A stretch of DNA of 64,000 nt, from positions 175,212,001 to 175,276,000 of the forward strand of contig OX597814.1 of NCBI GenBank assembly GCA_951406725.2. Reading direction: 5' to 3'. Position 1 is the first letter of the stretch. Each line of letters starts with the position of its first letter. Source of the stretch: Octopus vulgaris. Lineage: Eukaryota. Positions 5,394-63,872 of this stretch are shown here, in pieces. The position numbers and the translations under genes are program-made. The notes under the pieces are model-generated. The model did no database searches, had not been told where the DNA came from, and saw only the letters and a program-made list of their open reading frames with translations.

Positions 5394-5847
5394 GTAAGTT
5401 TAAATTCTTTTTCACTAATATTCTTTATGCTGTTCTTTGATTGTGATATAATGACCAGTTAAGCATTGCTTATTATTTTGTAAAATGTTGTTTGTGTACT
5501 ATTAGGTCAGCTCTGATTGAGCAGGCTTAAGTAGTTGGCTGCACAACTAGATTGCAATCTACAGATCTAGAGCTTTGACTATTCCCTACCACTGCATGAG
5601 GTATGGCATGTATGAGGGTCTTGCTGCACATTCTGACATGCAGGTGTTAATTGTACTTGGTGCAGTATTGCAGTATGGGCAGCTTGTGTCTAGTGTGTTT
5701 CTGTATGTTTAGATTCTGGTGGCTACCACACTAGATAGCAGTAAGCTGAAGTCTGTCTGTTTGTCTGGCAAGTGTCTTCTACTATAGCCTTGGACTGACC
5801 AAAGCCTTGTGAGTGGATTTGGTAGGTGGAAACTGAAAGAAGCCCGT

Positions 5848-5882
<35 letters not shown>

Positions 5883-7774
5883 ATGTGTGTGTCTGTGTTT
5901 GTCCCCCCAACATTGCTTGACAACTGATGCTGGTGTCTTGATACTTAACACTGGTGCCTATCAGCAGAGTATATGGGGCTAATGAAGCTGTTGATGCTAT
6001 TTTTTAATCTTTTTCCTGTCTTATTACTATGTGAGCGAAATAGGGTTCTAAGAATGATGTTATAGATATTTTTGCTTGTTTGGGAGTGTAGTAGCAGGGG
6101 CAGTGAAGGTTGGATCTCAGAGCTCACATAACCAAGTCTTCTATTTTTAGTATTTTTGTTTTGTTGTGCAGGTAGTTGGTTCTTGAGAAAATGAACTGTA
6201 GCTATGTCGGGTCACTGCCTTGAAGGGTTTAATTGAATAAATTGACACAGTACTTATTTTTTAAGTCTGCTACATATTCTATCAGTCTCTTTAGCTTAAC
6301 CATTAAGTTAGGACGTAAACAAACCAACACCAGTTGGGGTACAAAAACAAAGACATGCACACATGAATACACACACACACACACATATGATGGGTTTTTC
6401 TCAGTTTGCCTCTAACAAATCCAGTCACAAAGCTTTGGTCAATCCAGGGCTATAGTAGAAGACTCTTGCCAAAAGTGCTGTGCAGTGGAACTGAACCCAA
6501 GACCACATGGTTGGGAAGTAAGTTTCTTAACCACACAGCCACACCTGTGCCTGTATGTTTAATTTTTTTTAGTTTCGTTTAAGTGGTGAATATTTTTTTG
6601 TTGCCATTGTGTGTATAAATTCACTGTATAACTGCTAATGTTAGAAGGGAGATAATGGTAGCACTTCTGGCTTTTTATGGTCTAGGTTCATTTGTGTGTT
6701 TTGATATTTTGTGTGCATGTGTGTGTTGTTGGGTTGTAGTTTCATTTCAAAATAGTTTTTGTTTCATGCAGAGCCATCATGTGTTTGATGTATAATTGTA
6801 TGGTTTTTTCATGTTCAACTGCTATGACTTTCTGTGATAAATCTTTAACCACTAATCAGCCATCTAGCTGTGACCATACCATCTTTTCTGGTATATTATA
6901 TCCAGGACTGCATTATCTTGTAATTGCAGTCATTTTAAATACATTTGGATGAAGTTTGAAGGAAATTCAGCTTCTCTTTCTCATAGGTCAAAGGACTACA
7001 CAAGGGCTTCCTCATTGACTCGTATAAAAATATTTTATGAAATGTAGGCAAGTTTTATCATTTAAGAACTAACTAATGTAAAAATTATTGCTTGTGATTG
7101 CATAAGATTTTACACTAAATGTATTTGTAACCCTTTAAGCTCTGATCTCAAGATTCCTGATAGCAACTAAAATATTTTTGTGACTTAATATAAAGTGATT
7201 AACTGGTGCAAGAAAAATGCTTGTTAGTAGCAATCCTGTGATTGTACTTTTCCTTGCAAAACTTATACTTCTTTTGTTTTATATATTTGATTGTTATGGA
7301 AATCTTTTCATCTTTATCAGTCAAAAAATGCAGTTAGGATGTGAAAGAACCTTTTAAAAACACTCAAAGCTGTGTTAGTTCCACATAAAATTTATTTGAG
7401 GTGTCAACATTTTTGTCACATAATTGTAGATTTGATCATTGACACAGTTCCATCATCTGTGTCAGTGACTAGTTCACAGTTGTACGATGAAAATTTTCAT
7501 ATCACATTGATTATATTTAAATTTAAAAGGATTTTTTAACTGCTTTGTGACTCCTTAAATGACTCCTTCACTACATAGTTGCTTCAGTTTCAACACAATC
7601 TCAGATCAAGTCACTTGTTAGTCAGGTATAACTCAGAAACATTATTTTACAATTTTTAATTAATTTTTATCTAAATGTGGAAATTTCAAACTTTTAGTAG
7701 GTTATTGATTTATTAAAAAATATTCCACCAGTTCTTTTAATTTCGTTGTCTTCTCATTTGCCCTCGTTTTGCAG

Positions 7775-7921
7775 GTTGATCGGAAAAAAGTGTGTGTTCT
7801 TAATTGCTGGCAGAAAAACTACACAATCAAACATTTACTAACTGAAATAAGACAATTGATGTACATGAAGGAGAATCAGAAGTTATCACAGCCTCAAGAT
7901 GGTTCTATGTTCCAGAATTAG
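7775..7921 (+). CDS. UBE2V: UBE2V terminal coding exon
   Basis: ttttgcag|GTT GAT...CAG AAT TAG; VDRKKVCVLNCWQKNYTIKHLLTEIRQLMYMKENQKLSQPQDGSMFQN* matches the UEV C-terminus (W..Y.I...L...M...EN.KL.QP..G); in frame with the previous exon. Confidence 0.95.
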   Translation, partial: VDRKKVCVLNCWQKNYTIKHLLTEIRQLMYMKENQKLSQPQDGSMFQN

Positions 7922-10170
7922 CAATTTTTCTCTACCTCTCTTTTTACAAATCTAGCAGTGGGCTGAACGAAAATCTATTTCTACTACTATTACACAACAC
8001 CTATTATTTTTCTTTTCTTTCCCCCCAGCTGCAACCAACATCACTTAGCCTATCCACTTCCCCTCTGTTTCTTTCTCTTTCTCTGTCCAGTTGACTGATG
8101 TAGTTATGGTCACATTCCTGTTCCCTCTATCTTTACCAATCCTTTATTACCCCCTTTTTTTGAGGACCCATGACTAAAATTAAGTCTCTATTTGTTCCCT
8201 CTTTCAATAATGCCAAGAAAAGAAATTCTGTTAACATTATGGCTTGTCTCCATTATTATATGTCTAATTATTGCTTCTTTCTGGAGAATTTAATGAATTT
8301 ATGTGCATAATTACTGTGCACTAGGCAAACCAGTTTCAATATACCAGTAAAGTTTAAAAGATTAGAAGAAATATCTGAGTGTAACTATGACAATCTTTAT
8401 CTACAACAAAGTAATAATCCTCTTTCTCTTGATTTAAAAACAAAATCCTTTGTTCTTTCTTTAATCTAGTGATTCTGTTAAAGGCAGTGATCGGTAATTC
8501 TTGTGTAGGCTTTCTTTTTTTAAATTCTGAGCATTGCACACTCTGGATCACTTTAATCTTTTCTGGAATTTCTGGTCTTTAAAATGAAAGCAACTCTATA
8601 AGATAATCCATTTAAAAAAAATACTTTGTGAAAGATACTCTGAAAAGAAAAAAAAAATTTTTTTTTTATATTTTATATTTTGCAAATAACAATAGAAAAG
8701 TGTGAGGGCTGGATGAAAGCAAACCTTATTTTGTGAATATGTGCTTCAATTGCTTTAGAGATGGCTTACATTTTTTAGAGCCTAAAAACAGCACATTCAC
8801 TCTGGGAAAAATGAAGTTAATGAAATAAATTCAACTTTTCAAAGATAGTGGTTCGTTATATAAGTTATAATTAAAGATAGAAATATTTTTCTTTCTCTTC
8901 TTCTTCCTCTAATCAGCTTAGTTGTTGAAAAACACATAACTCCTGGACATTGTTATTCTGGACAAAAAGGAAGAAAGTCAAAACAGTTCTTTTATTTGTC
9001 CAATAATCTGAATCAATAAATTTGGTATAATAATAACTAATGAAAAGGAAAAAATCATTTTCTTTCAATAAAAATGGTTTACTGTTACTTCAGATTTAAA
9101 TGAAAAAAATATATTTTCCCTAACATTAATTTTGGCATTCATCTTTTCCTCTTGCTAATGCATTTTTGTGTTAAGTTCCAGGTGTTGACTTGGCAATCTC
9201 TGTACAAGTGGATAATAGCTGATGTAATTCTCAAATTAAAAATTATGAAGCATATAATCTCATGAGAATGTAAACGATTATAACATTGACATGTATATCT
9301 CCATAAACACTTTTTAATGCATATGAATGCATGTCCTAATGTGTAGATTTTCAATGCAGGAGTATTGCTTGTGTAGACGTGTAAATACACATCTTTAGAA
9401 ACATTAAATATATAGCCCTGTGCACTCTTCCATTTGTCAGCATTGATGTACATTTGTAAACTATATTGTTTGCCAAGGTGATTCATTTTATTGAGGATGT
9501 AGTAAGATCTAGAAAAATGTCATTTGTAACAGCTAAGTTAAAATGATTTCCTTTTTTTTTTTTCCATTTGTTTCCTAAAAAGAATACTAGGTTGGTCTGT
9601 TGGTTTCATATTTTATCTGAATGGACCTGTTAAAAGATATTTTTGCTTCGCTATCAAAAAAGCCACTGCAAATTTGGAGAACACTACCAAGACTCTTCTT
9701 CACTATGTTGGACTTGGCTTTTAGTAATTTTGATTACTCTTCCAAATAAAGCTTAAAAGAACTAAGTTTTGTACCTCATGTGTCAGTTTTTATCAAAATG
9801 TATCCTTGGTACGGCTACAACAGTTCTACCTACTTTTCAAGTTTAACTTTTTAGTTCTTACTATCTTAGTTTTTTTTTTTTTTTAACGATTAAGCAAGCT
9901 TTTTTTTTTTTTTAAATTAGATTTGTTTTGAATAAATTTATTTCTAGGTTTTCAAGAAATAAAATGTATGTCTTATAATTTGGAATAAACATACTGATAG
10001 TATTCTATAATGACTCTTGAGTAAAGCAATCTACTGCTGTTTCCCAGCTTTCTGTTTCTGTATGATGATGTTTTATGGAACATGTCATTTGATTAATTAA
10101 AACCTGTTGTTAAGCATTTTCTGTAGTTTGCATATTTAAAATTATCCTTTAAGGCAATATAATAAAAATA
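7922..10170 (+). other. Probable long 3' UTR of UBE2V with several AATAAA signals
   Basis: AU-rich, no recognisable TE; AATAAA near 8824, 9015, 9067, 9745, 9931, 9958, 9983, 10161; end point uncertain. Confidence 0.55.
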
Positions 10171-29530: not shown

Positions 29531-30345
29531 AGGGTATTGTAATTTTCATCAACTATATTGGCACAGGTATAACTCTGTAGTTAAGAAATTTACTTCCCAA
29601 TTTTACCAAAATCTGGGTAATCTATATGAAAAAAACAAAAAAAGCCCAACTTCTTTGTTTTTCTTTTTTTTTACAATATCCAGTTTCATACTCTGACCAA
29701 GAATTAACTAGGTATAAATGATCATACATCATGGTTTCAAAATTAATGCTAATTTAAAAATTGCCCCATGAAGTTTTGATACCTACACAATACACTGTGT
29801 AACAAAAGTTCCTTTTTCTTTTTATCTTTGGTCAGTAAGTGTTATATCTTATTTGCTTCTATCTAGAAATCAAAGGAAATGACTACTATTCCCTTCAAAG
29901 TTTGCTTTTGTGACCCAGACATCAATGTTTTGAAACTGACCTATCTTCCATTGCAGTTCAGACAGGTTCAGCATTGAGTTGCTGAGGCAGAAATATCATT
30001 ATAGCAAATATTCTGCTCAATACCAGAGATTTGCTTGTCAGTTACTTGACCTTAACCTCTTGAGCATTTCCCTTAGTGGCTGACAGTAAGTGCACCTCTG
30101 ATCATGTGCAGGCATAGTAGGGGAGCATTATAGTCATGTGCCAAGAGGGATTCTTTGGGGTTTGAATAAATGTAACAAAAGCAAATTTTGAAGGAAATAT
30201 TAGCTATTTTTCATACTTTCTAAGGGTAAGCAAATAGGAAAAAAAGCTGCTACCCAAGGACGAAAATTGTGTTATGCTGTGTTATAGAGGCGAAACATAG
30301 GTTAGAATTAAAAATAAAGAAAGAACTCAAACAATAATAATTCAC

Positions 30346-30450
30346 CTTCATATGTGCAGTTCTTGTGTAGAATTGGGTCACCAACAAAACCAGGAAGGCA
30401 GTCATCACAAGCAAAACCAGTAGTATTACGAAGGCAATGCATACATGCAC
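30346..30450 (-). CDS. MEGF9-like exon 6 (laminin-type EGF, second half)
   Basis: tttctttag|GT GCA...GAA G|gtgaat; GACMHCLRNTTGFACDDCLPGFVGDPILHKNCTYE (a different frame from the ORF-track entry); 105 nt, phase 1/1. Confidence 0.92.
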
Positions 30451-30919
30451 CTAAAGAAATATAAAACACAGATTTTTTCTTTTCACCTTCAAAGACTGTA
30501 GAAAGGAAATGACTACTATTCCCTTCAAAGTTTGCTTATCACTTGGTCAGGATGTATGAGCTTTTAATAATGTTTAACACAATAGATTTGGCCCAGGCTG
30601 AATTTAACTATGTAGCTGCAAAACCACTTTAGCCAATCTTCTGACAAACCATCAGTGTGTCAGTCTGTTCTACAAGGCTCTCTATGTTTGGTTCACTTTT
30701 ATCCTATGTTTTTGTACATTATTTTGTCAGCACTCGTGAAAAATCAGTTGAAAACATGTGTTATTTGTAAAACTAAAAGTGAGCGTGTGATTTTAAGATA
30801 GACTGTTTGAACTAAAACCATATCAGGATGAAAGCTTGGTTGAATATCAGATACAGAGGAAGAGTTACAACAAAGTTCCTAAATTATAAGAAAATTAACA
30901 GAGATGCAGCACGAAGTTT

Positions 30920-30966
30920 TGTCAGTGAACAGGTCGCGGTCTCAAAGTGAGGAAAATATTTCGGCA
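30920..30966 (+). ncRNA. Hammerhead-like motif with G3:C8-swapped core (partly decayed copy)
   Basis: tgtca-GTGAACA-g-gtcgc-ggtctcaaa-gtgag-GAAA-atat-TT-cggca; intact consensus reconstructed from the copies at 51990-52085 and 56536-56560. Confidence 0.5.
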
Positions 30967-31176
30967 AATTAAATTTAAATGTTGAAGTGAATCTAACGGT
31001 TTTTGTGTGTTTCTTAAATGGCTTATAAACACCTTCCATGCTGCAATTATTTTCGTTCCAGCACACAATCTCAGATCAAGTCACTTGCTATGCAAGTATA
31101 CCTCTATAAGAATATTATATGTCAGAAAATACAAACATTGCCAATAGTAACAAAGGTGAAAAGCTTAAAACCTTAC

Positions 31177-31335
31177 CAGTGCGGGGATCGCAAATCTCGG
31201 GGGAGTTAAGGTCAACATTGTCATTGCAAATGCACTTGGCACACTTGTCATAATACGAGAAGTAGCCATTGTCACAAACTTCACAATTTTTACCATTATA
31301 ACCCTTCTTACAGTAGCAAGTAGCTACTTCTCCCA
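31177..31335 (-). CDS. MEGF9-like exon 5 (laminin-type EGF)
   Basis: ctttcag|TG GGA...ACT G|gtaagg; CYCKKGYNGKNCEVCDNGYFSYYDKCAKCICNDNVDLNSPEICDPRT, resembling the distal LE repeats of vertebrate MEGF9; 159 nt, phase 1/1. Confidence 0.92.
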
Positions 31336-33708
31336 CTGAAAGAAAAATAAGTTAAAAAATAATAAGTAGTGTAAGAAAAATTAAAGCAATATAATAAAAA
31401 AAAATCCATTTTAAGACAAAAAGATTATTATTATAAAAGTTCATTCTTTTACTTGTTTCAGTCATTTGACTGCAGCCATGTTGAAGCACCGCTTTGAAGG
31501 GTTTTAACTGAACAAATTGACCCCAGGACTTATCTTTTAAAGCCTAGTCTCTTTTGCCTAAATGCTGAGTTACAGGAAGGTAAACACACCAACACTGGTT
31601 GTCAAATGAGGATGGGAGGACAAACACAGATACAAAGACACACACACACACATATACATGTGCCAGAGGCACGTAAAAAGCACCAACCGATCGTGTCCGC
31701 TGCCAGCCTCCCTTGGCACCCGTGCCGGTGGCACATAAAAAGCACACACTACACTCAATGAGTGGTTGGTGTTAGGAAGGGCATCCAGCTGTAGAAACAC
31801 TGCCAGATCAGACTGGAGCCTGGTGCAGCCTCCTGGCTTCCCAGACCCCTGTCGAACCATCCAACCCGTGCTAGCACAGAAAACGGATGTTAAACGATGA
31901 TGATGATGATGATGGGCTTCTTTGGTTGACCTGAGGCTATAGTAGAAGATACTTGCCCAAGGTGCCATGCAGTGGGACCGAACCTGGATCCATGTGGTTA
32001 GGAAGCAAGCTTCTTATCACACCGCCACGCCTGTACCTATGTGCTCGGGTGGTAGTATTTTTCCAAATTAAAGTCTACGCTTGAAAATATAGTCAGGTGG
32101 GCAAGTGTTTGCATAACATTGAGTTGACCAATGCCTTGGGAGATAAATTTAGCAGGTGGAAACTCTGTGGAAGCCCATGAATGTGTGTGTGTAAATTGGT
32201 CCACTGAACAATAGCTTGAAATATCTAAGTTATGAGTAAGATGGTGAGCTGACAGAATTTTAAAAGCACCAGCAAAATGCTAATGGCATTTCATCCACCT
32301 CTATGTTCTGAGTTCAAATTCTGCTGAGGTCGACTTTGCCTTTCATACTTTTGTATCAGTTGAGCACTGGGGTTGATGTAATCAACTGGCCCCCTCTGCT
32401 GAAATTACTGGCCGTTGTGTCAAAACGTGAACCCAACATTTAAGTAACAAGTTATGTCCCTTTATGACATTCATTAAATATAGATAGATATACCAAAGTA
32501 CAAGGAACAATATAATCAATCATAACAGTTGACGGTGGTGCTCCAGCTTGGTTACAGTCCAAAGACTGAAATCTGTACAAGAATAAAAAAGAAATATAAC
32601 AAAATTATCTCTGTTGTTGTTAGCAATTTATCTAGTCACATTCATTTCCATTCTGAGTTCAACTTGCACTGAAATCAAGTTTTGTCTTATATCCTTCTTT
32701 AGTGTCAACCAAATAGGGTATTAGTCAAACACAGATGTAGATTAAATCACCTTATACCCTCCCACAAAATCTGCTCACATGTCTGTATAAGAAATCATTG
32801 TAATATTTAGTGTTCAAATTACACAGGGGTTGAGAGCCTGCTTTCTTTATTTCCAGAGTCGACATACAGAAGTAGATTCAGTTGATTAGATACTCCCTAC
32901 AAATTTATAATTTTGCCCCAAAGTATGAAATCATTATTATAAAAGGTGCTAGAACAACAAATTATTGGAAGTCAGATTAATATTCAGTTGTGTCCCTTCT
33001 TTGTTTTGTGTTTAAAATTCTGTTTCATTCCTCGTACCTCAGCAAATAATAATTACTATCATATCAAGCACAACAATAATAATTCTTTCTACTATAAGCA
33101 CAAGTACTTATTTTATTGATCCAGAAATTTGAACTCAGGGTACATAGCTGGAAGAATCGTTGGCATTCTATCCAGCATGCCAACAATTCTTCCACAAGAT
33201 ATTTTTTGCCGAGCTAGCAGAATCATTAGCACAATTGATACTTGATGAAAAGCAAAATCAACTTCAGCGGAATTTGAACTCAGAACGCAAAGACAGACAA
33301 AATACCACTAGGCATTTTGCCTGGCATACTAACGTTTCTACCAGCTCACTGCCTTCTGAAGCATAAATATTGTTATAGCAAATATTCTGCTCAATACCAC
33401 AGACCTGCTTGTCAGTTGCTTGACCGTAACCACTTCAGCATTTCCCTTCGTGGTTGACAATATGTGTGTCTCTGATCATGAGCAGGAGTAGTGGGGGAGC
33501 ATCATAGCCGTGTGTAGAGAAGGATTCTTTGGGGTTTGAATAAATATAACAAAAGTAAAGTTTGAAGGAAATATTAGCTATTTTCCAAATTTTTCTAGGA
33601 GTAAGCTACCCAAGGACAAAAATCATATTACACTGTGTAACGGACAGATTAACAGATTTGGTTATGTCATTGCTGAAGAAGAAAACTGATATAAAAAAAT
33701 GGACTTAC

Positions 33709-33900
33709 CTAAGGTACAAAAGAAACTCGAGTCTGATTTGCAAGGGCAGGACAGGCAATGGCCATCTTTTTCATAGAAAAAGTGCTTACATTGATGACAA
33801 AACAAACCAGTGTATCCTTCCCGACAGTGACATATATCTAAGGAATTCAGGTCACATTTCTCATCGCCAGGTTTAACTCCAGGAGGGTGACAAGAACAAA
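33709..33900 (-). CDS. MEGF9-like exon 4 (laminin-type EGF)
   Basis: atttcag|TT TGT...TTA G|gtaagt; CSCHPPG...CHCREGYTGLFCHQCKHFFYEKDGHCLSCPC; 192 nt, phase 1/1. Confidence 0.92.
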
Positions 33901-36060
33901 CTGAAATATTAGACAATGTCAGATTTTGAAATAAGAGCAATTGTGTAAAAGTGAATGCCAAACAAAGAAATATATAAAAAAAAAAGAAAGAAAAAACTTC
34001 AGAAATAAAGAAGAAATGTGTAATTATTAAGTATTTGGCTTACTGACAAATTACTAGAAACAAGCCTTATATTTGGCCACATCATATCTTGACCAATTTC
34101 TCTAAGATATTATATCTATAGTTTTAAAATGAATAAGGTTGTTTCCAAATAAGGCAATATTTACCCATGACCAGACATATAATTCAACGAAATTATCCCT
34201 AAGTCAGCTTCTACATGCCAGGATCAGATGATTCCTGTTTGTGCCACCTACCACAGCAGCTCCCAGACAGTCCTTGGAACAGTAAGGCTAAAGTCAACAC
34301 CCCACCAACAATTCCACACTCTAGAGGATTCAAATCAGGAGAGTAAGAGAGTCAAATGATCATAGAGAATATTGTGATCTTGGATTTAATTCGCCCTCTC
34401 CTCATAACATAACATTTGTATTAGATGTCCCTATGCACCACAAGTGAAAAAGTGAACTTCACAAACTTGATCTGTTTAGCAATGGCTTTCATTAACCCGC
34501 TGGAGTCATTGTTAATGATATCCTGGGCTTACTGGATGAACCCAGCCATCCTGGAGACATCTGGCCATTGAAAATGCTTTCTTTTGGCCTTGATAACACA
34601 TTCTCATCAGAGGTTCCCAGCTCTTTTCTCACCCTGAACACACAAGACTTAGCCACATTGAAAAACCAGTGATCTCCAAAGGACTGTAATCAGTAGCTAG
34701 TGTCATGAGTATAGTGTACCTTTTTATTTCTCAGTTAAGATCGAAATCTGCCATATTTATGATGTTTATATGTTAGTAAGTGAGAAAGTCAAATTTGACA
34801 CACACCATCATATGGCCTATAAATTCGTTCACAAGTACTTATAACATTCTGCATAATTTACTGCATATTCAAGATGCCATACTGCAGATTATTGGTAAGT
34901 TCCCAACAAGCTAGGTCTGTGATACTATTTCTACTTTCATTTATGCCGCATGTTTAATTTCTGGCTGTAATGATGGGCTTTGGCCTTGGCACATTATATG
35001 AAAATGAAGTCTTAAGTGGTGTGATCCAATGAGCTTTTAGGATTTATAAGCAGCCTTTTGTTTTACACCTTTGAAATCGTTTGGTAATCGGTAGCAGCTT
35101 TACTAATAATTTCCCCATATATCTTTTATGGTGATTCCTCCAGAAAAGATTGTAAAAATATATACATGGTTCTACCACATGTTGATAAGAACACAGGAAA
35201 TTGCTCTCAAGACAATTTAGTTATTGTATAGAAAACTTTTAGTTTCCTACATTTGAATTTAAGCTGCCTTTCTTCCAAATCTTGTCATTTTCTCAATATC
35301 CATGTTGTGCTTCAAAAATATGCAAATATTTTTTTTCAATTTGTGTTAGTTAAATGCTATTTAACCCCAAGTTCACACTGGTTGAACAGCCTACAATTAA
35401 AGCTGTCCTATCAATGACTTTCCCATCAATTCATATATATATATATTTAGCACTATATTGTCCAACATTTCCTTTAATTTTTAAGGCAGTTGGCTGTAAT
35501 TTTAAGATTTGGTTGCTAGATCTAGCAGGTTGACCATGTATAGACTGCTCTACCCTCATCACCACTATCTTTTTAGAAGGCTTAAATCTGAGCTTGGCAC
35601 CAGATATGTTGTGCATGGTGCCTGAGAAACTGGCAATCCAGCCATATGCTCTTTACAAAGTAATATGGACTAACCGTTATGCTAAACTAGCCAGAACTAG
35701 CCTCTCACACCTACCCTACAATGTCATTTTAAAAATAAACAATCACATCATTAAAGTCTTGAAGTTCCAAGATAATGCATGATTAATTCAAAACAATGAA
35801 TAAATAAGCATTGCATTTAACAGAGTAACCAGAATTTGGTTTATTTTTACTAGGTACAAGGATGATCCATGCAGAGAAAGAGGTATAGTTTATCAGGTTG
35901 AGAATTTTTCCTAAAGACCAACTTAAATTATCTATTTGAACATTTAAATTCAGAATCATAGAACTCATATCATCAAACAAAGAATTTGATAAAAAATGAA
36001 AAAATAAAATAAAACAAACAAACGAACAAATACAAAATAAACAAAAATTAAAAGCTCTAC

Positions 36061-56666: not shown

Positions 56667-57517
56667 GGTTAATATCTAGATCCGCACCCGGTGGGAAAAA
56701 TGAGATCCGCACCCGGTGGGAAAAATGGAAACGAAAATGTGTAACAGTTGTAAGGCATCGTATATTGACGGAATAAGACGGGAAAAAAGCGCGCTGACAA
56801 ACGGGGGGTGGGGTGGGGGCTCGGGAAATTCCCAGGATCAACCGTAGAGGCAAAAATGGAAAAAAATATGTGTAACAGGTGTAAGGCATCGTATATTGAA
56901 GGAATATGACGAAAAAAAAGCGCGCTGACAAACGGGGGGGGAGGGGGCTCGGAAAATTGCCTACGATTTAAAGAAAAATTTACCATCAATTTTCACCATT
57001 GTGTTTCTGATTCGCGACCCCATGTCGAATTTATCGATTTTTTTCAGAACTGGGGGAACTTTTCAAAATTTTCGCTGCGTTAGTTTTGAATTATGACATT
57101 GGGCTATGTGTGTGAAATGCGTTTAAAATGGTGAAAATTGATGGTAAATTTTTCTTTAAATCGTAGGCAATTTTCCGAGCCCCCCCCCCCCCCGTTTGTC
57201 AGCGCGCTTTTTTTTCGTCATATTCCTTCAATATACGATGCCTTACACCTGTTACACATATTTTTTTCCATTTTTGCCACCTGGGCGTGGATCCTCTACG
57301 GTTGATCCTGGGAATTTCCCGAGCCCCCCACCCACCCCCCGTTTGTCAGCGCGCTTTTTTCCCGTCTTGTTCCGTCAATATACGATGCCTTACAACTGTT
57401 ACACATTTTCGTTTCCATTTTTCCCACCGGGTGCGGATCTCATTTTTCCCACCGGGTGCGGATCTAGATATTAACCACAATTGGTTTTCCCACCGGGTGC
57501 GGATCTAGATATTAACC
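56667..57517. mobile_element. Young palindromic long-TIR element (MULE/Merlin-like), 8-bp TSD
   Basis: ggttaatatctagatccgcacccggtggg termini; arms about 330 bp, nearly identical; TSD ctcaattg at 56659-56666 and 57518-57525. Confidence 0.8.
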
Positions 57518-57786
57518 CTCAATTGTAATGAGTAAATAAATAAACAAATGGGTTTTCTTTAATCAAATGGCAGTCAGTAAAACTATTGTTTGCAGAATTA
57601 GTCATGCGCTTCGGTGAGCAGTGTGACCTGAGGAAATAAGAGAGTTGCACGACGAAAGTTTGTTGACTCAAGAAATAAACATTTAAGTTTCTTCCCATTC
57701 ATTTTGTTTCATATATCCTTTTTTTTAAAAATAAACTTTAAAAAACATTAAACTTCAAGATTTTCTTATATATATATATATATATA

Positions 57787-58215
57787 TATTGGCAGAGCAA
57801 GACTGCTAGGTAGTCGGCCGTATGCTAGAAATAGATCATTAACGATCAAACTACAAAGAAAGTTCTCTTTTACACTGAACGATTGTACTGATGAGGCCAC
57901 GGACATTTGAATTATGTTAGTAATTCTTTTGTTAAAGGCCGAAACCGAGGTATGCTTTAATTCTGTTTTTTATATAAATTTTCATCTGTCCTGCCCGCCA
58001 AATTTGGTTCTGGTGTTCACTGAATTTTTCCTCTAGAGAACTTTCTTTGTAGTTTGATCGTTGATGATCTATTTCTAGCATACGGCCGACTACCTAGCAG
58101 TCTTGCCCTGCCAATAAACACATATATTAGAATTTTCTCTGATTTCTCAGATTTTTTGTATGCTAGACTACTGGTTTTAAATTGATATTGAAATTAATAT
58201 TAATTTATCTCCCTC

Positions 58216-58219
<4 letters not shown>
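57787..58219 (+). mobile_element. Penelope-associated-type non-coding element: 82-bp inverted repeats enclosing a hammerhead, inserted in (TA)n
   Basis: 57787-57868 is the reverse complement of 58035-58116 with 2 mismatches. Confidence 0.65.
57885..57955 (+). ncRNA. Type I hammerhead ribozyme inside an inverted-repeat element
   Basis: gta-CTGATGA-ggcc..ggcc-GAAA-ccgagg-TA-tgc; stem I only 3 bp with one G:U; GUA cleavage after 57952. Confidence 0.7.
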
Positions 58220-58259
<40 letters not shown>

Positions 58260-58439
58260 ATTTTATCGCATTTTGAATTTGTTTACATATTTCTCGATAA
58301 ATTTTGAGCGTTAGACTATATACCAGAAATCCCTAGTTTGTCGGGTTCGTTCTGCGTCTGTGCAGTGATCTGATTAGTTAGAAAGAGCAAATTAGTAGAC
58401 GCACATGTGTCTATCGAGTTGCGCTTCATAATAACAGGA

Positions 58440-58514
58440 ATCTTACTGAAGAGCCTACCTGAGTAAATAAATATTATTTTTATTGCTGAAAAAGGTGAAA
58501 CTGCAGTCTAAGAT
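58440..58514 (+). ncRNA. Type I hammerhead ribozyme, retrozyme unit 1
   Basis: atctta-CTGAAGA-gcct..aggt-GAAA-ctgcag-TC-taagat: 6-bp stem I, 4-bp stem II base, palindromic stem III, GUC cleavage after 58508. Confidence 0.88.
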
Positions 58515-58838
58515 GAACAGAGTTAGTAAAAGTTTTTATTTTCACTTCACTAAATTTATCAAGCTTCTGTGTTTCTAGTACATACTTCGCCTTTAATGTA
58601 CTTATATATGAATAATATATGGCCTGTGCTAGAAACACCAGCGATAACAATTAATTTGATTTTATCGCATTTTGAATTTGTTTACATATTTCTCGATAAA
58701 TTTTGAGCGTTAGACTATATACCAGAAATCCCTAGTTTGTCGGGTTCGTTCTGCGTCTGCGCAGTGATCTGATTAGTTAGAAAGAGCAAATTAGTAGACG
58801 CACATGTGTCTATCGAGTTGCGCTTCATAATAACAGGA

Positions 58839-58913
58839 ATCTTACTGAAGAGCCTACCTGAGTAAATAAATATTATTTTTATTGCTGAAAAAGGTGAAAC
58901 TGCAGTCTAAGAT
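58839..58913 (+). ncRNA. Type I hammerhead ribozyme, retrozyme unit 2
   Basis: Identical motif offset by 399 nt; GUC cleavage after 58907. Confidence 0.88.
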
Positions 58914-59077
58914 GAACAGAGTTAGTAAAAGTTTTTATTTTCACTTCACTAAATTTATCAAGCTTCTGTGTTTCTAGTACATACTTCGCCTTTAATGTAC
59001 TTATATATGAATAATATATGACCTGTGCTAGAAACACCAGCAATAACAATTAATTTGGTTTTATCGCAGTTTGAATT

Positions 59078-59110
<33 letters not shown>

Positions 59111-59320
59111 GTTTAAAATACATTCGCCATGATAGATCGCTAGCCACCACACATTCTTTATTTTCTCTCCTTGTTTCTTTGTGTGTTCCTTTCTGTGGAA
59201 GAGCGTCGGCTCGAAACGTTAAAGACTTTTTCACTTCTCGGGCGTTAAACTAATATTATCTGTTAGTTGTCTACACCACCTGTCTTTGTCTTTTGTCTTT
59301 TTTTTTTGTGAATTCTCCCT
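59111..59320 (+). mobile_element. Short dispersed repeat with minimal HHR-like motif, inserted in (TA)n
   Basis: Homologous diverged copy on minus strand at about 38835-39010, also next to (TA)n. Confidence 0.6.
59189..59224 (+). ncRNA. Minimal hammerhead-like motif with atypical core CUGUGGA-A
   Basis: cttt-CTGTGGA-a-gagc-gtcg-gctc-GAAA-cg-TT-aaag; stems I and II pair fully; decayed second copy on minus strand at 38923-38958. Confidence 0.55.
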
Positions 59321-59327
59321 ATATATA

Positions 59328-59673
59328 TTTATGTATCAAATGAAATCAAAAGCAGAACACAGAGGATGTCGCGGTACACGTGTTTCAAGCTTTATAAACG
59401 ACCTATTCTTACATCAGTGTATAATAGACATAAAGGATGGTTTAAAGCTCTCTTCAGCCGCATGCAATTGTTATTCCAAAGAGTTACATCACACTATGAA
59501 AAATCCGAAAGATATATTTAGTATTATCCATTATGATAGGTATATTATGTCTCCCTGAGAAAGTGTATTTGTAAAATTTCATAACCAAATAGGCGTGTAG
59601 GGTATCATTGGATTTCGAAAATCTGTCCACCAGTCAACATAGAGTGAATGTTAAATATTGAACTTCAAGATTT

Positions 59674-59677
<4 letters not shown>
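59328..59677 (-). mobile_element. About 350-bp HHR-bearing monomer (retrozyme- or Penelope pLTR-like) between TA runs
   Basis: Contains the minus-strand hammerhead; bounded by TA repeats. Confidence 0.55.
59371..59461 (-). ncRNA. Type I hammerhead ribozyme, minus strand
   Basis: Minus strand gcgg-CTGAAGA-gagcttta..taaagctt-GAAA-cacgtg-TA-ccgc; 4-bp GC stem I, 8-bp stem II, palindromic stem III; cleavage between 59375 and 59374. Confidence 0.82.
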
Positions 59678-59734
<57 letters not shown>

Positions 59735-60179
59735 CAGCCATGTCAGAAAGACAGTAGTCTTCCTTCAAGTGTGGACGGCTTTCCTGTCTCTCTCTCTCGC
59801 CGTCCTCAAAAGCGTTCATAATATTTTTTCTTTCGTTTTGGTTTAACAACTCTCAATGTCTGTGTTACTGTTATTCTCCTTGTCCTGTCTTTTACTGTTT
59901 ATATTTTGTACTGTCTTTACTGTCCTGTTTTTGTTACCATTTTTACCCCTCCACAAAAAAATCTTTTGTGGGAAGGATTGTTTCAACGGAGTCGTGTCTC
60001 GCCTTTACCTTCGTAACGCGGAGTAAATGAAACAGAGGCGGCTGAAGAAGGGGAATTTTCCTTGTGTTGTATGTCTTGTACTCTATTTTTTCGTTGTTTA
60101 AGAAAAATGTCCATTTCCTTGGTTTTGTGTTTATGTTTTCGTTTCTCATTGTGTTCGACGTTTTTTTGGTGTCCTGTAC

Positions 60180-60316
60180 CCATATATGCATGTATATATA
60201 CATATAGATGTAGGTACGTACATATATGTGTGTATATATGCATATGTTTTATTTATTAATTTGTTATTATATGACCGAACGCACACATCCATTTCTAAGT
60301 AAGTTTTATCTATATG

Positions 60317-60347
<31 letters not shown>

Positions 60348-60396
60348 ATACATATATATATATATATGTATATATATATGTATACATATATATATG

Positions 60397-60469
<73 letters not shown>

Positions 60470-60630
60470 GTATGTGGGTATGTGTGTGCGTGTGTGCACA
60501 TATACATATGTGTATTAAGATTTACATGTGTGTGTGTACGGATACCTATATCTGTACATATCATTTGTTGTATGAAACATGTTTATATATATGCCCATGG
60601 GTAAGTATGTAGACACACACACATACACAT
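60180..60630. repeat. Compound (TA)n/(TG)n microsatellite tract
   Basis: Read directly; source of the spurious YI/HT/VC ORFs; similar tract at 45390-45680. Confidence 0.9.
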
Positions 60631-60968
60631 CTTAAAGCATGTAGTGGCAGATTGCTGTAAAAACTGACCACTCACTACAACAATATCAAATTTCATTTCC
60701 CCTCTCCCCCGGAAATAAGAAGTAATTTATGACACCACCACATCAAAACCAAAATCTTAACCTCAAACCTTTTAACATCTTATCTCTTTATCTCTTTATC
60801 TTAATTCTTTTGTTTTTACGATTACTTTGTATCTTTTTATATTTCCTTATTTTTCTTTATATCTTTATTCTTTACATTTTTATAATTTACGTTTTTTTTA
60901 TACTTTACGTTTTTATATTTTCGTGTTACTCCAGTTTTTTTAATATTTATTATATTCATATATATATA

Positions 60969-61366
60969 CTAGCAGTATCGCCCGGCGTTGCTCGGATTTG
61001 TAAGGGAAATAACTGTATAAGCATTTTTAGAGATGTAAAGTATAATAGCCATCTCAATATGGCTAACCACAAAGGGGGGGGTGTTACTGTAGCTTTTTAC
61101 GTTCCGAGATTTAATAATAGATTTTTAGAGAGTTACTTCCCTTATATATGCCAAAAATGCATTAAAAATGGGAAAAATTGATGGTAAATGTTTTTTAAAA
61201 TCGTAAACTCATCATAGACGCGCGCTAATACCCAGAAGGGCTCGATATGAATCACGACTATAAGATACCCGGTTTTGGTTAAACTGCACCACAAAATGTG
61301 AGAGTAGTTAGGAATCTAAATCGTAGGAGACAGACCGGCACACAACCTCACTTTTATATATAAAGA
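60969..61366 (-). mobile_element. Non-autonomous Helitron-like element
   Basis: Minus strand a|TCtttatatataaaag...ccgagcaacgccgggcgatactgCTAG|t. Confidence 0.7.
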
Positions 61367-62376
61367 TATATCTAACTTAGATCCAAGGCTCCTATTTATG
61401 TATGTATGTATGTATGTATGTATGTATGCATGCATGCATGTATGTTTATTCATATATCTTTTATTTATCTCAGTCTTTGAACTGTGGCCATGCTGGGGCA
61501 CTACCTTGAAGGGTTTAGCCAAATGAATCATCCCCAGTGCCTACTATTTTTACTAAGACTAATACTTTTGCTATCAGTCTCTTTTTGCTGAACTGCTAAG
61601 GTGTGGGGATGTAAATAAACCAACACTGGTTGTTGAGCATTTATGGGGGAACAAACACAAACACATAGACATACACACATTGGAACACAAACACAAGCAC
61701 AGACATTTGTATATTGGTACTCAAACACACACAAACACATAGACATACACCTATTGGTATGCACACACACACACAAGCACATATTTATTTACTTGTTTCT
61801 GGCATTAGGTTGTGGCCATGCTGGGGCACAGCCTTAAAAGATTTAGTTGAGCAAATTGACCCTAGAACTTTTGCCACAGTGCTAAGTTATGGGAACATAA
61901 ACAAACCAATACCAGTTGTCAAGCAGTCATTAGGGACAAACATAAATACAAAGACACTACTGCTTGACAGCCGGTGGTGGTTTATTTACATCTATGTAAC
62001 TTAATGGTTTGGCAAAAGAGACACATATGATGGTCTTTTTTCAATTTCAATCCACCATATCCACTCACAAGGCTTTGGTCAACCCAAGACTATAGTGGAA
62101 GACACTTGCCCAAAGTGTTGTACTGTGGGACTTAAACTCAAGGCTGCATGGTTGGGCCTTTTCTTTTCTTTGTCTTGCAAGTTACTTCATGTCATGAAAA
62201 GAACACCCACTGCACACTGAAAAGTGGTTAGCATTAGGAAAAGCATTCAGCTGTAGAAACCATGCCAAAAACAACATTGGGGCCTGATGCAGCTCTGTGG
62301 CTTGTCAAATCCTGTCAAACTGTCCAATCCATGCTAGCATAAAAAACAGCAGTTAAATGATGACACACACACACAT

Positions 62377-62658: not shown

Positions 62659-63872
62659 CAGACGTGGGCACCAAACTGTTAATCCGTTAATCGTTAATTA
62701 ATGAAGTTAATATTTTCGTTAATGCTCTTTTAAGTTAACTTTGGAAATCATTGTTAGGCTAATTAACTTACATTACATTTAACTTCTGCTAACTCAAGTC
62801 TGCTTGAGTTAATTTCCATTAACTCAAGTTGCTATGACAATTATTAGGCTCAAGGACTTGAGGTCCAAGGGCCTCATCTACTGCATCCCCTTGGTTGACG
62901 CACTTTTGGCAGGCATTGAAAAAAAGGTTTAGGACCCTCCTGGAAGATGAGGAATGCCATCTGGCTGCTGCCTTCCACCCCAGGTTTTGCCTCATCTGGT
63001 TGAATAAATATGACAACACCAAGGTGGGGAAAAGCATGGAGGGTAAAACCGAGGAGATCAGTCTGATGAAGTGAGCAGCAATGGTGAAGAGGAAGATGAC
63101 TTCTTTGGTGGTGTCACCCAGCCAAAAGAAAGCAGCAAGAGCCACAGGTCACAAGGCCCAGACTTTGGTCAAGACCTGGTTGGAGACCAACTCCAAGGAC
63201 TTGCTGATAGATGCTGCCTTCTTGGGTAAGCAAGTGTTGATAGACTTATTCAGCATGTTCAAAACAGCCATCCCCTCCAGTGCTGCAAAGGGGCATTTGT
63301 TCTCTATGGGCAAGGACATCTTGAGTGCCAAGAGATTATCCCTATCTGATGAAAACTTTGACATGCTAATTTTCATGAACAACATACATCTCATGAACAA
63401 AATGGAGAATGAGAAGAAGAGGCAAAATTAAATTATGTATATATTGTGTTTTTCATTATTTTTTTATGGCCAGTTTATAAATAAACTTTTTTAGTTTAAT
63501 ACTAATATTGTGTTTCATTTGAGGTTTTTTTCTAGCTCTAAAAGCCTTTAAAAACCTAAAAAAAAGGGCCAAAACTATAAAGTCAGCATTTTTAACTCTA
63601 AAGAAAAAAACATAGTTTTGGGGTTCTAAAGTCATTAAAAAGGCCCCAAAAAGGCTGATTTTATAGTTTTGGCACTTTTTGAAGGTGTTTTTAGAGCAAA
63701 AACTGATTTTTTGTTTTTATTTTCTATAACAGAAATTAACATTAATGGTTTATCAATAATTTCCATTACATTCTTAAAGAATTAACTGATTAACAGTTAT
63801 CAAACTTAGCTTTTTGGTTAACTGATTAACAGTTAACATAGTTAACTATTTGATTAATGGTGTACACTTTTG
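62659..63872 (+). mobile_element. Internally deleted hAT transposon with transposase C-terminal relic
   Basis: LAAAFHPRF..WL and dimerisation domain TAIPSSAA..HLFS.G..IL...R.SLSDENFD.LIF; imperfect TIRs cagacgtgggcacc/ggtgtacacttttg; gttaa-rich subterminal repeats. Confidence 0.8.

Follow-up and report, generated by a model that had tools for sequence, protein, structure and literature searches.

The stack of hammerhead motifs at positions 57768-59731 of the window, the 64,000-nt stretch of Octopus vulgaris contig OX597814.1 (assembly GCA_951406725.2, positions 175,212,001 to 175,276,000, forward strand) analysed here, very probably consists of four truncated hammerhead-bearing repeat ends, likely brought together by serial Penelope-type TPRT into one (TA)n run and likely functionless as a cluster. 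The features that make up the stack, which derive from four families designated A to D, are as follows.

57748..57767, plus strand: left copy of a 20-nt direct duplication, likely the insertion scar of D
57767..57789, no strand: (TA)11.5 run before A
57790..57868, minus strand: inverted arm of family A, ending at the second fixed start site of the family (locus L304)
57869..58217, plus strand: main arm of family A, a 5'-truncated portion of the 546-nt non-coding tandem unit, ending at the first fixed start site; best relative 98%
57885..57955, plus strand: hammerhead A, with intact core, 3-bp stem I and non-palindromic stem III loop; predicted cut after 57952
58218..58256, no strand: (TA)19.5 run between A and B
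58259..59083, plus strand: family B, 2.1 head-to-tail 399-nt non-coding units; best relative 99.7%
58440..58514, plus strand: hammerhead B1, with intact core, 6-bp stem I and palindromic stem III; predicted cut after 58508
58839..58913, plus strand: hammerhead B2, identical to B1 and its predicted dimer partner; predicted cut after 58907
59084..59110, no strand: (TA)13.5 run between B and C
59118..59320, plus strand: family C, 5'-truncated 3' end (pseudo-LTR) of a putative Neptune-type Penelope-like element
59189..59224, plus strand: hammerhead C, with loopless palindromic stem III and a CUGUGGA core plus an extra A; predicted cut after 59220
59330..59657, minus strand: family D, a 5'-truncated 328-nt 3' end; best relative 95%
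59370..59462, minus strand: hammerhead D, with intact core, 5-bp stem I, 8-bp stem II and palindromic stem III; predicted cut after 59375
59658..59679, plus strand: right copy of the bracketing duplication, with one mismatch and two extra T
59679..59732, no strand: (TA)27 run after D

A structure scan of both strands recovered five type I hammerhead folds between 57768 and 59731, with cleavage bases at 57952, 58508, 58907 and 59220 on the plus strand and 59375 on the minus strand; these are the five sites, and the 556-, 399- and 313-nt spacings between plus-strand cuts, that the initial annotation had proposed. Two of the five motifs (B1 and B2) are two units of one tandem repeat. The core is unchanged in four motifs (A, B1, B2 and D), all of which have the features of a minimal type I hammerhead (CUGANGA and GAAA boxes, helices I and II, a short helix III and a NUH site), and the C motif at 59220 carries one core change and one extra base. 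Overall, the stack contains 4 strict and 5 relaxed hits, either count being reached by none of 300 dinucleotide shuffles, and the strict hits in the whole 64-kb window are those 4 and no others. Helix III has at most 2 pairs in all five motifs, and is palindromic, which permits dimer folding, in B1, B2, C and D and not in A. An internal CUGAUGU was rejected as the core of the D motif, with the structure scan placing that core further 5'. An Rfam search of the stack returned no hammerhead and no other credible match; when monomers and homodimers were folded by minimum energy, stem II came out in all four cases, and B, C and D also showed pairing of their palindromes between molecules, with the complete active fold absent from these structures.

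The four families are indeed unrelated, as had been suggested, their best pairwise match being 19 nt (E 0.009, not significant). The accompanying description of TA runs between successive elements applies before A, between A and B, between B and C, and after D, where 21 nt separate the element from the final run, and breaks down in the C/D gap, which has only ~10 nt of TA.

To place these families in their genomic setting, we used as background an unbiased 600-kb sample drawn from six contigs, in which (TA) runs of at least 5 units occur once per kb and (TA)4 lies within 40 nt of 5.2% of positions. Against this 5.2%, TA follows the 3' end at 78 of 88 junctions of A, at 66 of 70 of B and in all 10 unbiased C copies from the same 600 kb, bearing out elsewhere in the genome the proposed association with (TA)n. 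Counting against the association, TA lies within 40 nt of the query end in only 17 of 24 top-scoring C copies and in only 9 of 24 for D, where a longer tail form lowers the count. The background sample itself holds 10 C pieces, 2 of A, 1 B-like locus and none of D; first-look candidates number 2023, 583, 1817 and 1316 for A to D, figures that are not copy numbers.

The unit of family A is 546 nt long, non-coding and arranged head-to-tail (in L037 the units are spaced at 546 and 545 nt), in arrays that reach about 2.9 units. The 25-nt word just past its cut has 221 exact genome matches, and 86 loci, most of the first 100 listed of these matches, yielded 88 distinct junctions with the window copy included; all 88, a subset of the 221 pattern hits, fall within unit sequence. 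Their 3' ends are concentrated at two start sites about 100 nt apart, with 54 at one, 26 at the second and 8 at other positions. An inverted partner arm of variable length accompanies 43 of the 88 junctions and is missing at 45; because of this variable and often missing partner we read the inverted repeat of A in the window as a second arm rather than a MITE end, and rejected a MITE reading of the family. The hammerhead folds in 18 of 24 family copies, 16 of those 18 having a 7-bp stem I, of which the window motif, with 3 bp, has lost 4 pairs. Judged by its sequence organisation, A is a tandem non-coding retrozyme.

Family B, whose two units here differ at 3 positions, was followed through a 24-nt word with 93 exact genome matches, giving 70 distinct junctions, a subset of the 93 pattern hits, that likewise all fall within unit sequence. 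The 3' end is at one site in 66 of the 70, the longest array extends over 2,319 nt (5.8 units), and the hammerhead folds in 13 of 13 top copies, features that fit an animal non-LTR retrozyme. The insertion shapes of the two families differ, with an inverted partner arm in only 2 of 70 B junctions vs. 43 of 88 in A.

The 5' ends are variable, and the idea that cleavage by the hammerhead produces precise 5' ends in these families is not supported. In A the signal is weak and imprecise: 14 5' ends lie within 10 nt of the cut vs. 6.2 expected (2.3-fold, P 0.005; best-window scan P 0.04), an excess that may reflect polymerase pausing at helix I, and 2 lie within 2 nt vs. 1.6 expected, which is no enrichment. 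In B there is none (5 near the cut vs. 5.5 expected). Most copies read through the motif, so their templates were likely uncut or circular.

To judge from its relatives elsewhere in the genome, family C belongs to an autonomous Neptune-type element encoding RT and GIY-YIG, of which it forms the 3' pseudo-LTR. In L162 and L187, matches at 93% and 91% lie downstream of remnants of RT and of the endonuclease region. Upstream of a 93% copy in L048/L096 the sequence runs on into a degraded frame carrying RT motifs, a CX4CxxC linker and a GIY-YIG/CCHH region. A Pfam scan of four degraded L096 frames returned nothing. A search with the protein of this degraded frame gave 10,983 first-look candidates and many open frames of >1,000 codons. 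At ten loci picked for long frames (L192-L201), a C-like repeat of 70-75% identity lies on both sides of a 914-1214-aa frame in 10/10, TA follows the 3' C-like copy in 9/10, and in L193 the hammerhead motif is present in both pLTRs. The full-length relatives L192 and L193 match RVT_1 (E 2e-7) and, weakly and below the cutoff, GIY-YIG (E 0.007); the L193 translation contains DKG, CX4CxxC and CCHH-type motifs, and a CX2-5CxxC linker with CCHH is also found in L048. The Neptune-type label follows the motifs listed in PMC8557442 (this and the other papers cited by PMC number or DOI are drawn on for the portions available to us, and statements about them apply to those portions). The elements at L192-L201 are young and full-length, with near-identical RT regions at many loci, and are candidates for an active element.

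With C assigned to an autonomous element, the stack is not wholly non-autonomous, and the initial annotation's view that all four families are non-autonomous is not supported. The check that it named, a search for full-length Penelope ORFs attached to each family, succeeded for C, at L192-L201; for A, B and D no RT partner was found. In relatives of D, low-complexity sequence that is non-coding or 3'-UTR-like reaches upstream for 1.3 kb or more, and an RT frame sought in four 9-10 kb D regions gave none. D occurs mostly as single truncated ends, with two fixed 3' ends about 70 nt apart, and its hammerhead folds in 12 of 24 copies. One integration machinery shared by all four families, as originally proposed, is likewise not borne out, given the lack of a partner for A, B and D and the differing insertion shapes of A and B.

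We also observed an abundant Hydra-like family with a C-terminal endonuclease (L202-L231; 14,068 first-look candidates, labelled by motifs from PMC8557442), in which 8 of 30 loci carry a long-loop hammerhead of the family's own, about 0.6-1.3 kb downstream. As a partner of A, B or D it was rejected, its hammerhead matching none of their motifs. Upstream body of D is present at 60306-60963 (plus strand, opposite to D of the stack), 81% identical to L099 and ending at a TA run; we rejected it as a second arm of D because the duplication closes D at 59657, and it is probably a separate insertion. L099 itself contains, at 5640-8625, a TA-separated stack of a truncated D end, a two-armed further family with a hammerhead-like motif and a long D copy.

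A model for the stack can be borrowed from an Anolis element studied in vitro, in which priming is internal, at two RNA sites, both strands are extended, and ribozyme cleavage is dispensable and protein-assisted (PMC11167929). In such a model a Penelope-like endonuclease would cut (TA)n, and the freed DNA ends would serve as primers for reverse transcription, which would begin at fixed AT/AC-rich sites inside the element RNA, located about 100-270 nt downstream of its hammerhead. Synthesis would usually end early, leaving a stub that retains the hammerhead, and the TA left on both sides of each insertion would offer a fresh target; A and B likely borrow proteins in trans. (TA)n targeting has been reported for the Naiad and Hydra clades, and a linker-mediated microsatellite bias has been proposed for Neptune (PMC8557442). 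The Penelope-type origin first suggested for the stack is supported in outline, with C linked to an RT/GIY-YIG element and the families associated with (TA)n.

Two regularities within these families extend beyond the stack. Among 37 two-armed A insertions, 11 had an interrupted or unclassed end, and 26 of the 26 classifiable insertions, the window copy among them, have one arm per fixed start site (P 1.5e-8 against 0.5), a pattern to which loss of perfect palindromes from the genome or assembly could contribute. The second concerns the C-type motif pattern, which has 23,215 exact genome matches: a hand count of core position 6 among the first 100 listed gave 80 U, 17 A and 3 C, position 7 is free, and the window motif has U in place of the conserved A6. 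A natural A6C hammerhead variant, weak in Mg and active in Mn, has been described (PMC3088659, PMC7151607); a natural A6U core was not found in the literature searched, which was mostly open-access, and unseen supplements may list such variants.

It is conceivable, though we hold this joint reading only tentatively and lean somewhat against it, that the stack samples two unpublished Penelope-type rules, namely fixation of an A6U core in a Neptune-type lineage and two-armed insertion with one arm per start site by an enzyme dimer. Under this joint reading, A6U would be fixed in a thousands-copy Neptune-type lineage with long frames, with position 7 drifting and the helices kept, and the motif would be a protein-assisted or metal-shifted ribozyme, or a fold retained for recognition by the reverse transcriptase; the enzyme dimer would use one RNA molecule to prime both ends of a cut TA run. 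Catalysis vs. protein recognition can be tested on the C-type A6U core, for which A6 sister families provide a natural control, and family A can test whether both DNA ends are served by one RNA.

The initial annotation had also named co-clustering of the families as a check, and here a mild, roughly 2-fold excess was found, while a four-family stack recurred in 0 of 186 other loci. Strict hammerhead folds number 15 in the 600-kb background, or 22 with any U6 core allowed, i.e., about one every 27-40 kb; the 425 kb of flank around 186 family-centred loci contains 26 strict folds where 15.6 would be expected (P 0.01). Pieces of other A-D families number 22 there, vs. 13 in the 600 kb of background, which was not TA-matched. 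Another family lies within 100 nt at 9 of 141 A/B loci, and two further A-D families meet at none of the 186. Separately, three hammerhead-bearing families (A, B and another) occur within about 2 kb at L353.

These richer flanks and close pairs are what a true hotspot beyond target size would show, whether through open chromatin near a promoter or through elements attracting others, with all four families moved by one enzyme. An excess of this size is, however, what shared TA targets would give, the insertion geometry differs between A and B, and the genome has at least two distinct endonuclease lineages, so that we regard such a hotspot as unlikely. The mild co-clustering follows from shared TA targets, with four families in one run as a tail event. 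The cluster itself matters little, being the expected product of serial insertion by abundant TA-targeting elements, and it is a warning that ribozyme hotspots in genomes of this kind should not be taken for regulatory features.

A regulatory reading would make the stack a selected ribozyme cluster, its read-through transcript cut into circularising 556-, 399- and 313-nt pieces, or an insulator that cuts incoming or divergent transcripts. The four cuts on one strand at these spacings, the intact B1 and B2, and the location of the stack would speak for it, and the stated distance of 2.8-4.7 kb upstream of the neighbouring gene's start codon is correct. That gene, however, has a signal-peptide-like first exon from about 54975 (minus strand) and laminin-EGF-like exons at 30311-34039 (minus strand), i.e., it is transcribed away from the stack, making cleavage of its transcripts unlikely. 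Further against selection, A has lost more than half of its stem I pairing and the C core is changed, no second copy accompanies A, C or D in cis, each element is typical of its family, and motifs of this kind are found genome-wide. Single minimal motifs, moreover, did not cleave in vitro, and cleavage by dimers was weak (PMC4209133). The proposed chimeric 556- and 313-nt circles are thus unlikely, and a 399-nt monomer would be plausible, since only B1 and B2 have a partner here. We consider a selected cluster highly improbable; the young B dimer nonetheless provides a cheap test case for monomer release and circle formation.

The order in which the elements arrived can be approached through the 20-nt duplication that encloses A to D. 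The 17-nt core of this duplication has 4 occurrences in 2.8 Gb. Two of them are here, 1,910 nt apart and in direct orientation, each immediately before a TA run, pointing to serial insertion rather than a mis-join. Unique-sequence target duplications were found in 0 of 28 testable A copies, 1 of 16 for B (probably a common repeat), 0 of 23 for D and 0 of 24 for C, and we rejected target duplication as a trait of any of the four families; since it is rare in them, the 20-nt bracket is atypical. We infer that the duplication belongs to D. On this assignment D, as the carrier of the bracket, would have inserted first at the edge of a TA run, duplicating 20 nt of flank plus TA, and C, A and B would then have entered the left TA copy, with B likely last. 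Nearest-relative identities (B 99.7%, A 98%, D 95%, C 94%) mark B as the youngest and leave C and D, about equally diverged, not ordered.

An assembly mis-join across TA repeats is the faintest of the possibilities we weighed: every junction in the stack is a repeat and no contig from 4 short-read runs spans it, but such contigs cannot span a stack of this kind and also show no empty allele, which leaves them uninformative either way, and a mis-join is not expected to be bracketed by a duplicate that is specific to the locus and has diverged slightly (by a mismatch and a small indel), the stack sits within a 225-Mb contig, and two-family stacks recur at other loci. In two runs, the left flank (57518-57756) matched short-read contigs with depths of 41 and 63.

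We also observed further repeats around the stack. Right of the last TA run, at 59898-60180 (plus strand), lies a repeat family E with a fixed 3' end and three loci in the 600 kb, one background copy having an inverted partner; its CUGAAGA box comes after, not before, the GAAA box, an order that is possibly that of a scrambled hammerhead. To the left, 56667-57476 is a large nested inverted repeat with arms of 184 and 152 nt (98-99% identical) around a high-copy core, which we take to be a Foldback or Helitron-like repeat, and related ends are present at 60963-61367. A 116-codon frame at 63081-63431 (plus strand) presumably resembles the C-terminal dimerisation region of a hAT transposase.

The stack is thus best described as a graveyard of known element types, the cluster itself being probably without function. 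The literature searched, mostly open-access, held no description of octopus hammerheads, of this locus or of nested Penelope stacks, and hammerheads are unmentioned in the available portion of PMC13282606.

Comparison with known systems places each component near a described class. Like the hammerheads that metazoan Penelope pLTRs carry (Cervera and de la Pena 2014, PMC4209133), those of the stack have a short or loopless palindromic helix III and an extra base after position 9, and in that system too the motifs occur in thousands, mostly single, from truncated elements, with close opposite-strand pairs; unlike them, A, B and D carry long loop II inserts (36-48 nt), and C has A6 changed to U, a change absent from the variants given in the part of that paper drawn on, which do include U3-A8. 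With the Neptune clade (Craig et al. 2021, PMC8557442) the C-type elements share a C-terminal GIY-YIG, an upstream CX2-5CxxC linker, CCHH and flanking pLTRs, but the window holds only a 200-nt 3' stub of such an element, and the clade placement is by motifs, not by tree. The 5' truncation, inverted 5' copies, microsatellite targets and usual lack of a discernible target duplication are also as described for Penelope-like elements in the same source.

With tandem units that are non-coding and AT-rich and that each carry a single type I hammerhead, A and B resemble in sequence the non-LTR retrozymes of animals (Cervera and de la Pena 2020, PMC7229834; Li, Clavereau and Pollet 2026, 10.64898/2026.07.22.740005). 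The A unit, at 546 nt, is longer than the 170-400 nt of animal retrozymes (PMC7229834), and the strict (TA)n targeting seen here is unmentioned for them in the available portions of PMC7229834 and 10.64898/2026.07.22.740005. Finally, the two fixed internal RNA starts and AT-rich targets recall Anolis Poseidon PAc (Frangieh et al. 2024, PMC11167929), although its start sites are 30-40 nt apart, compared with about 100 nt in A and 70 nt in D, and the one-arm-per-site rule of A goes unstated for PAc in the portion of that paper drawn on here.
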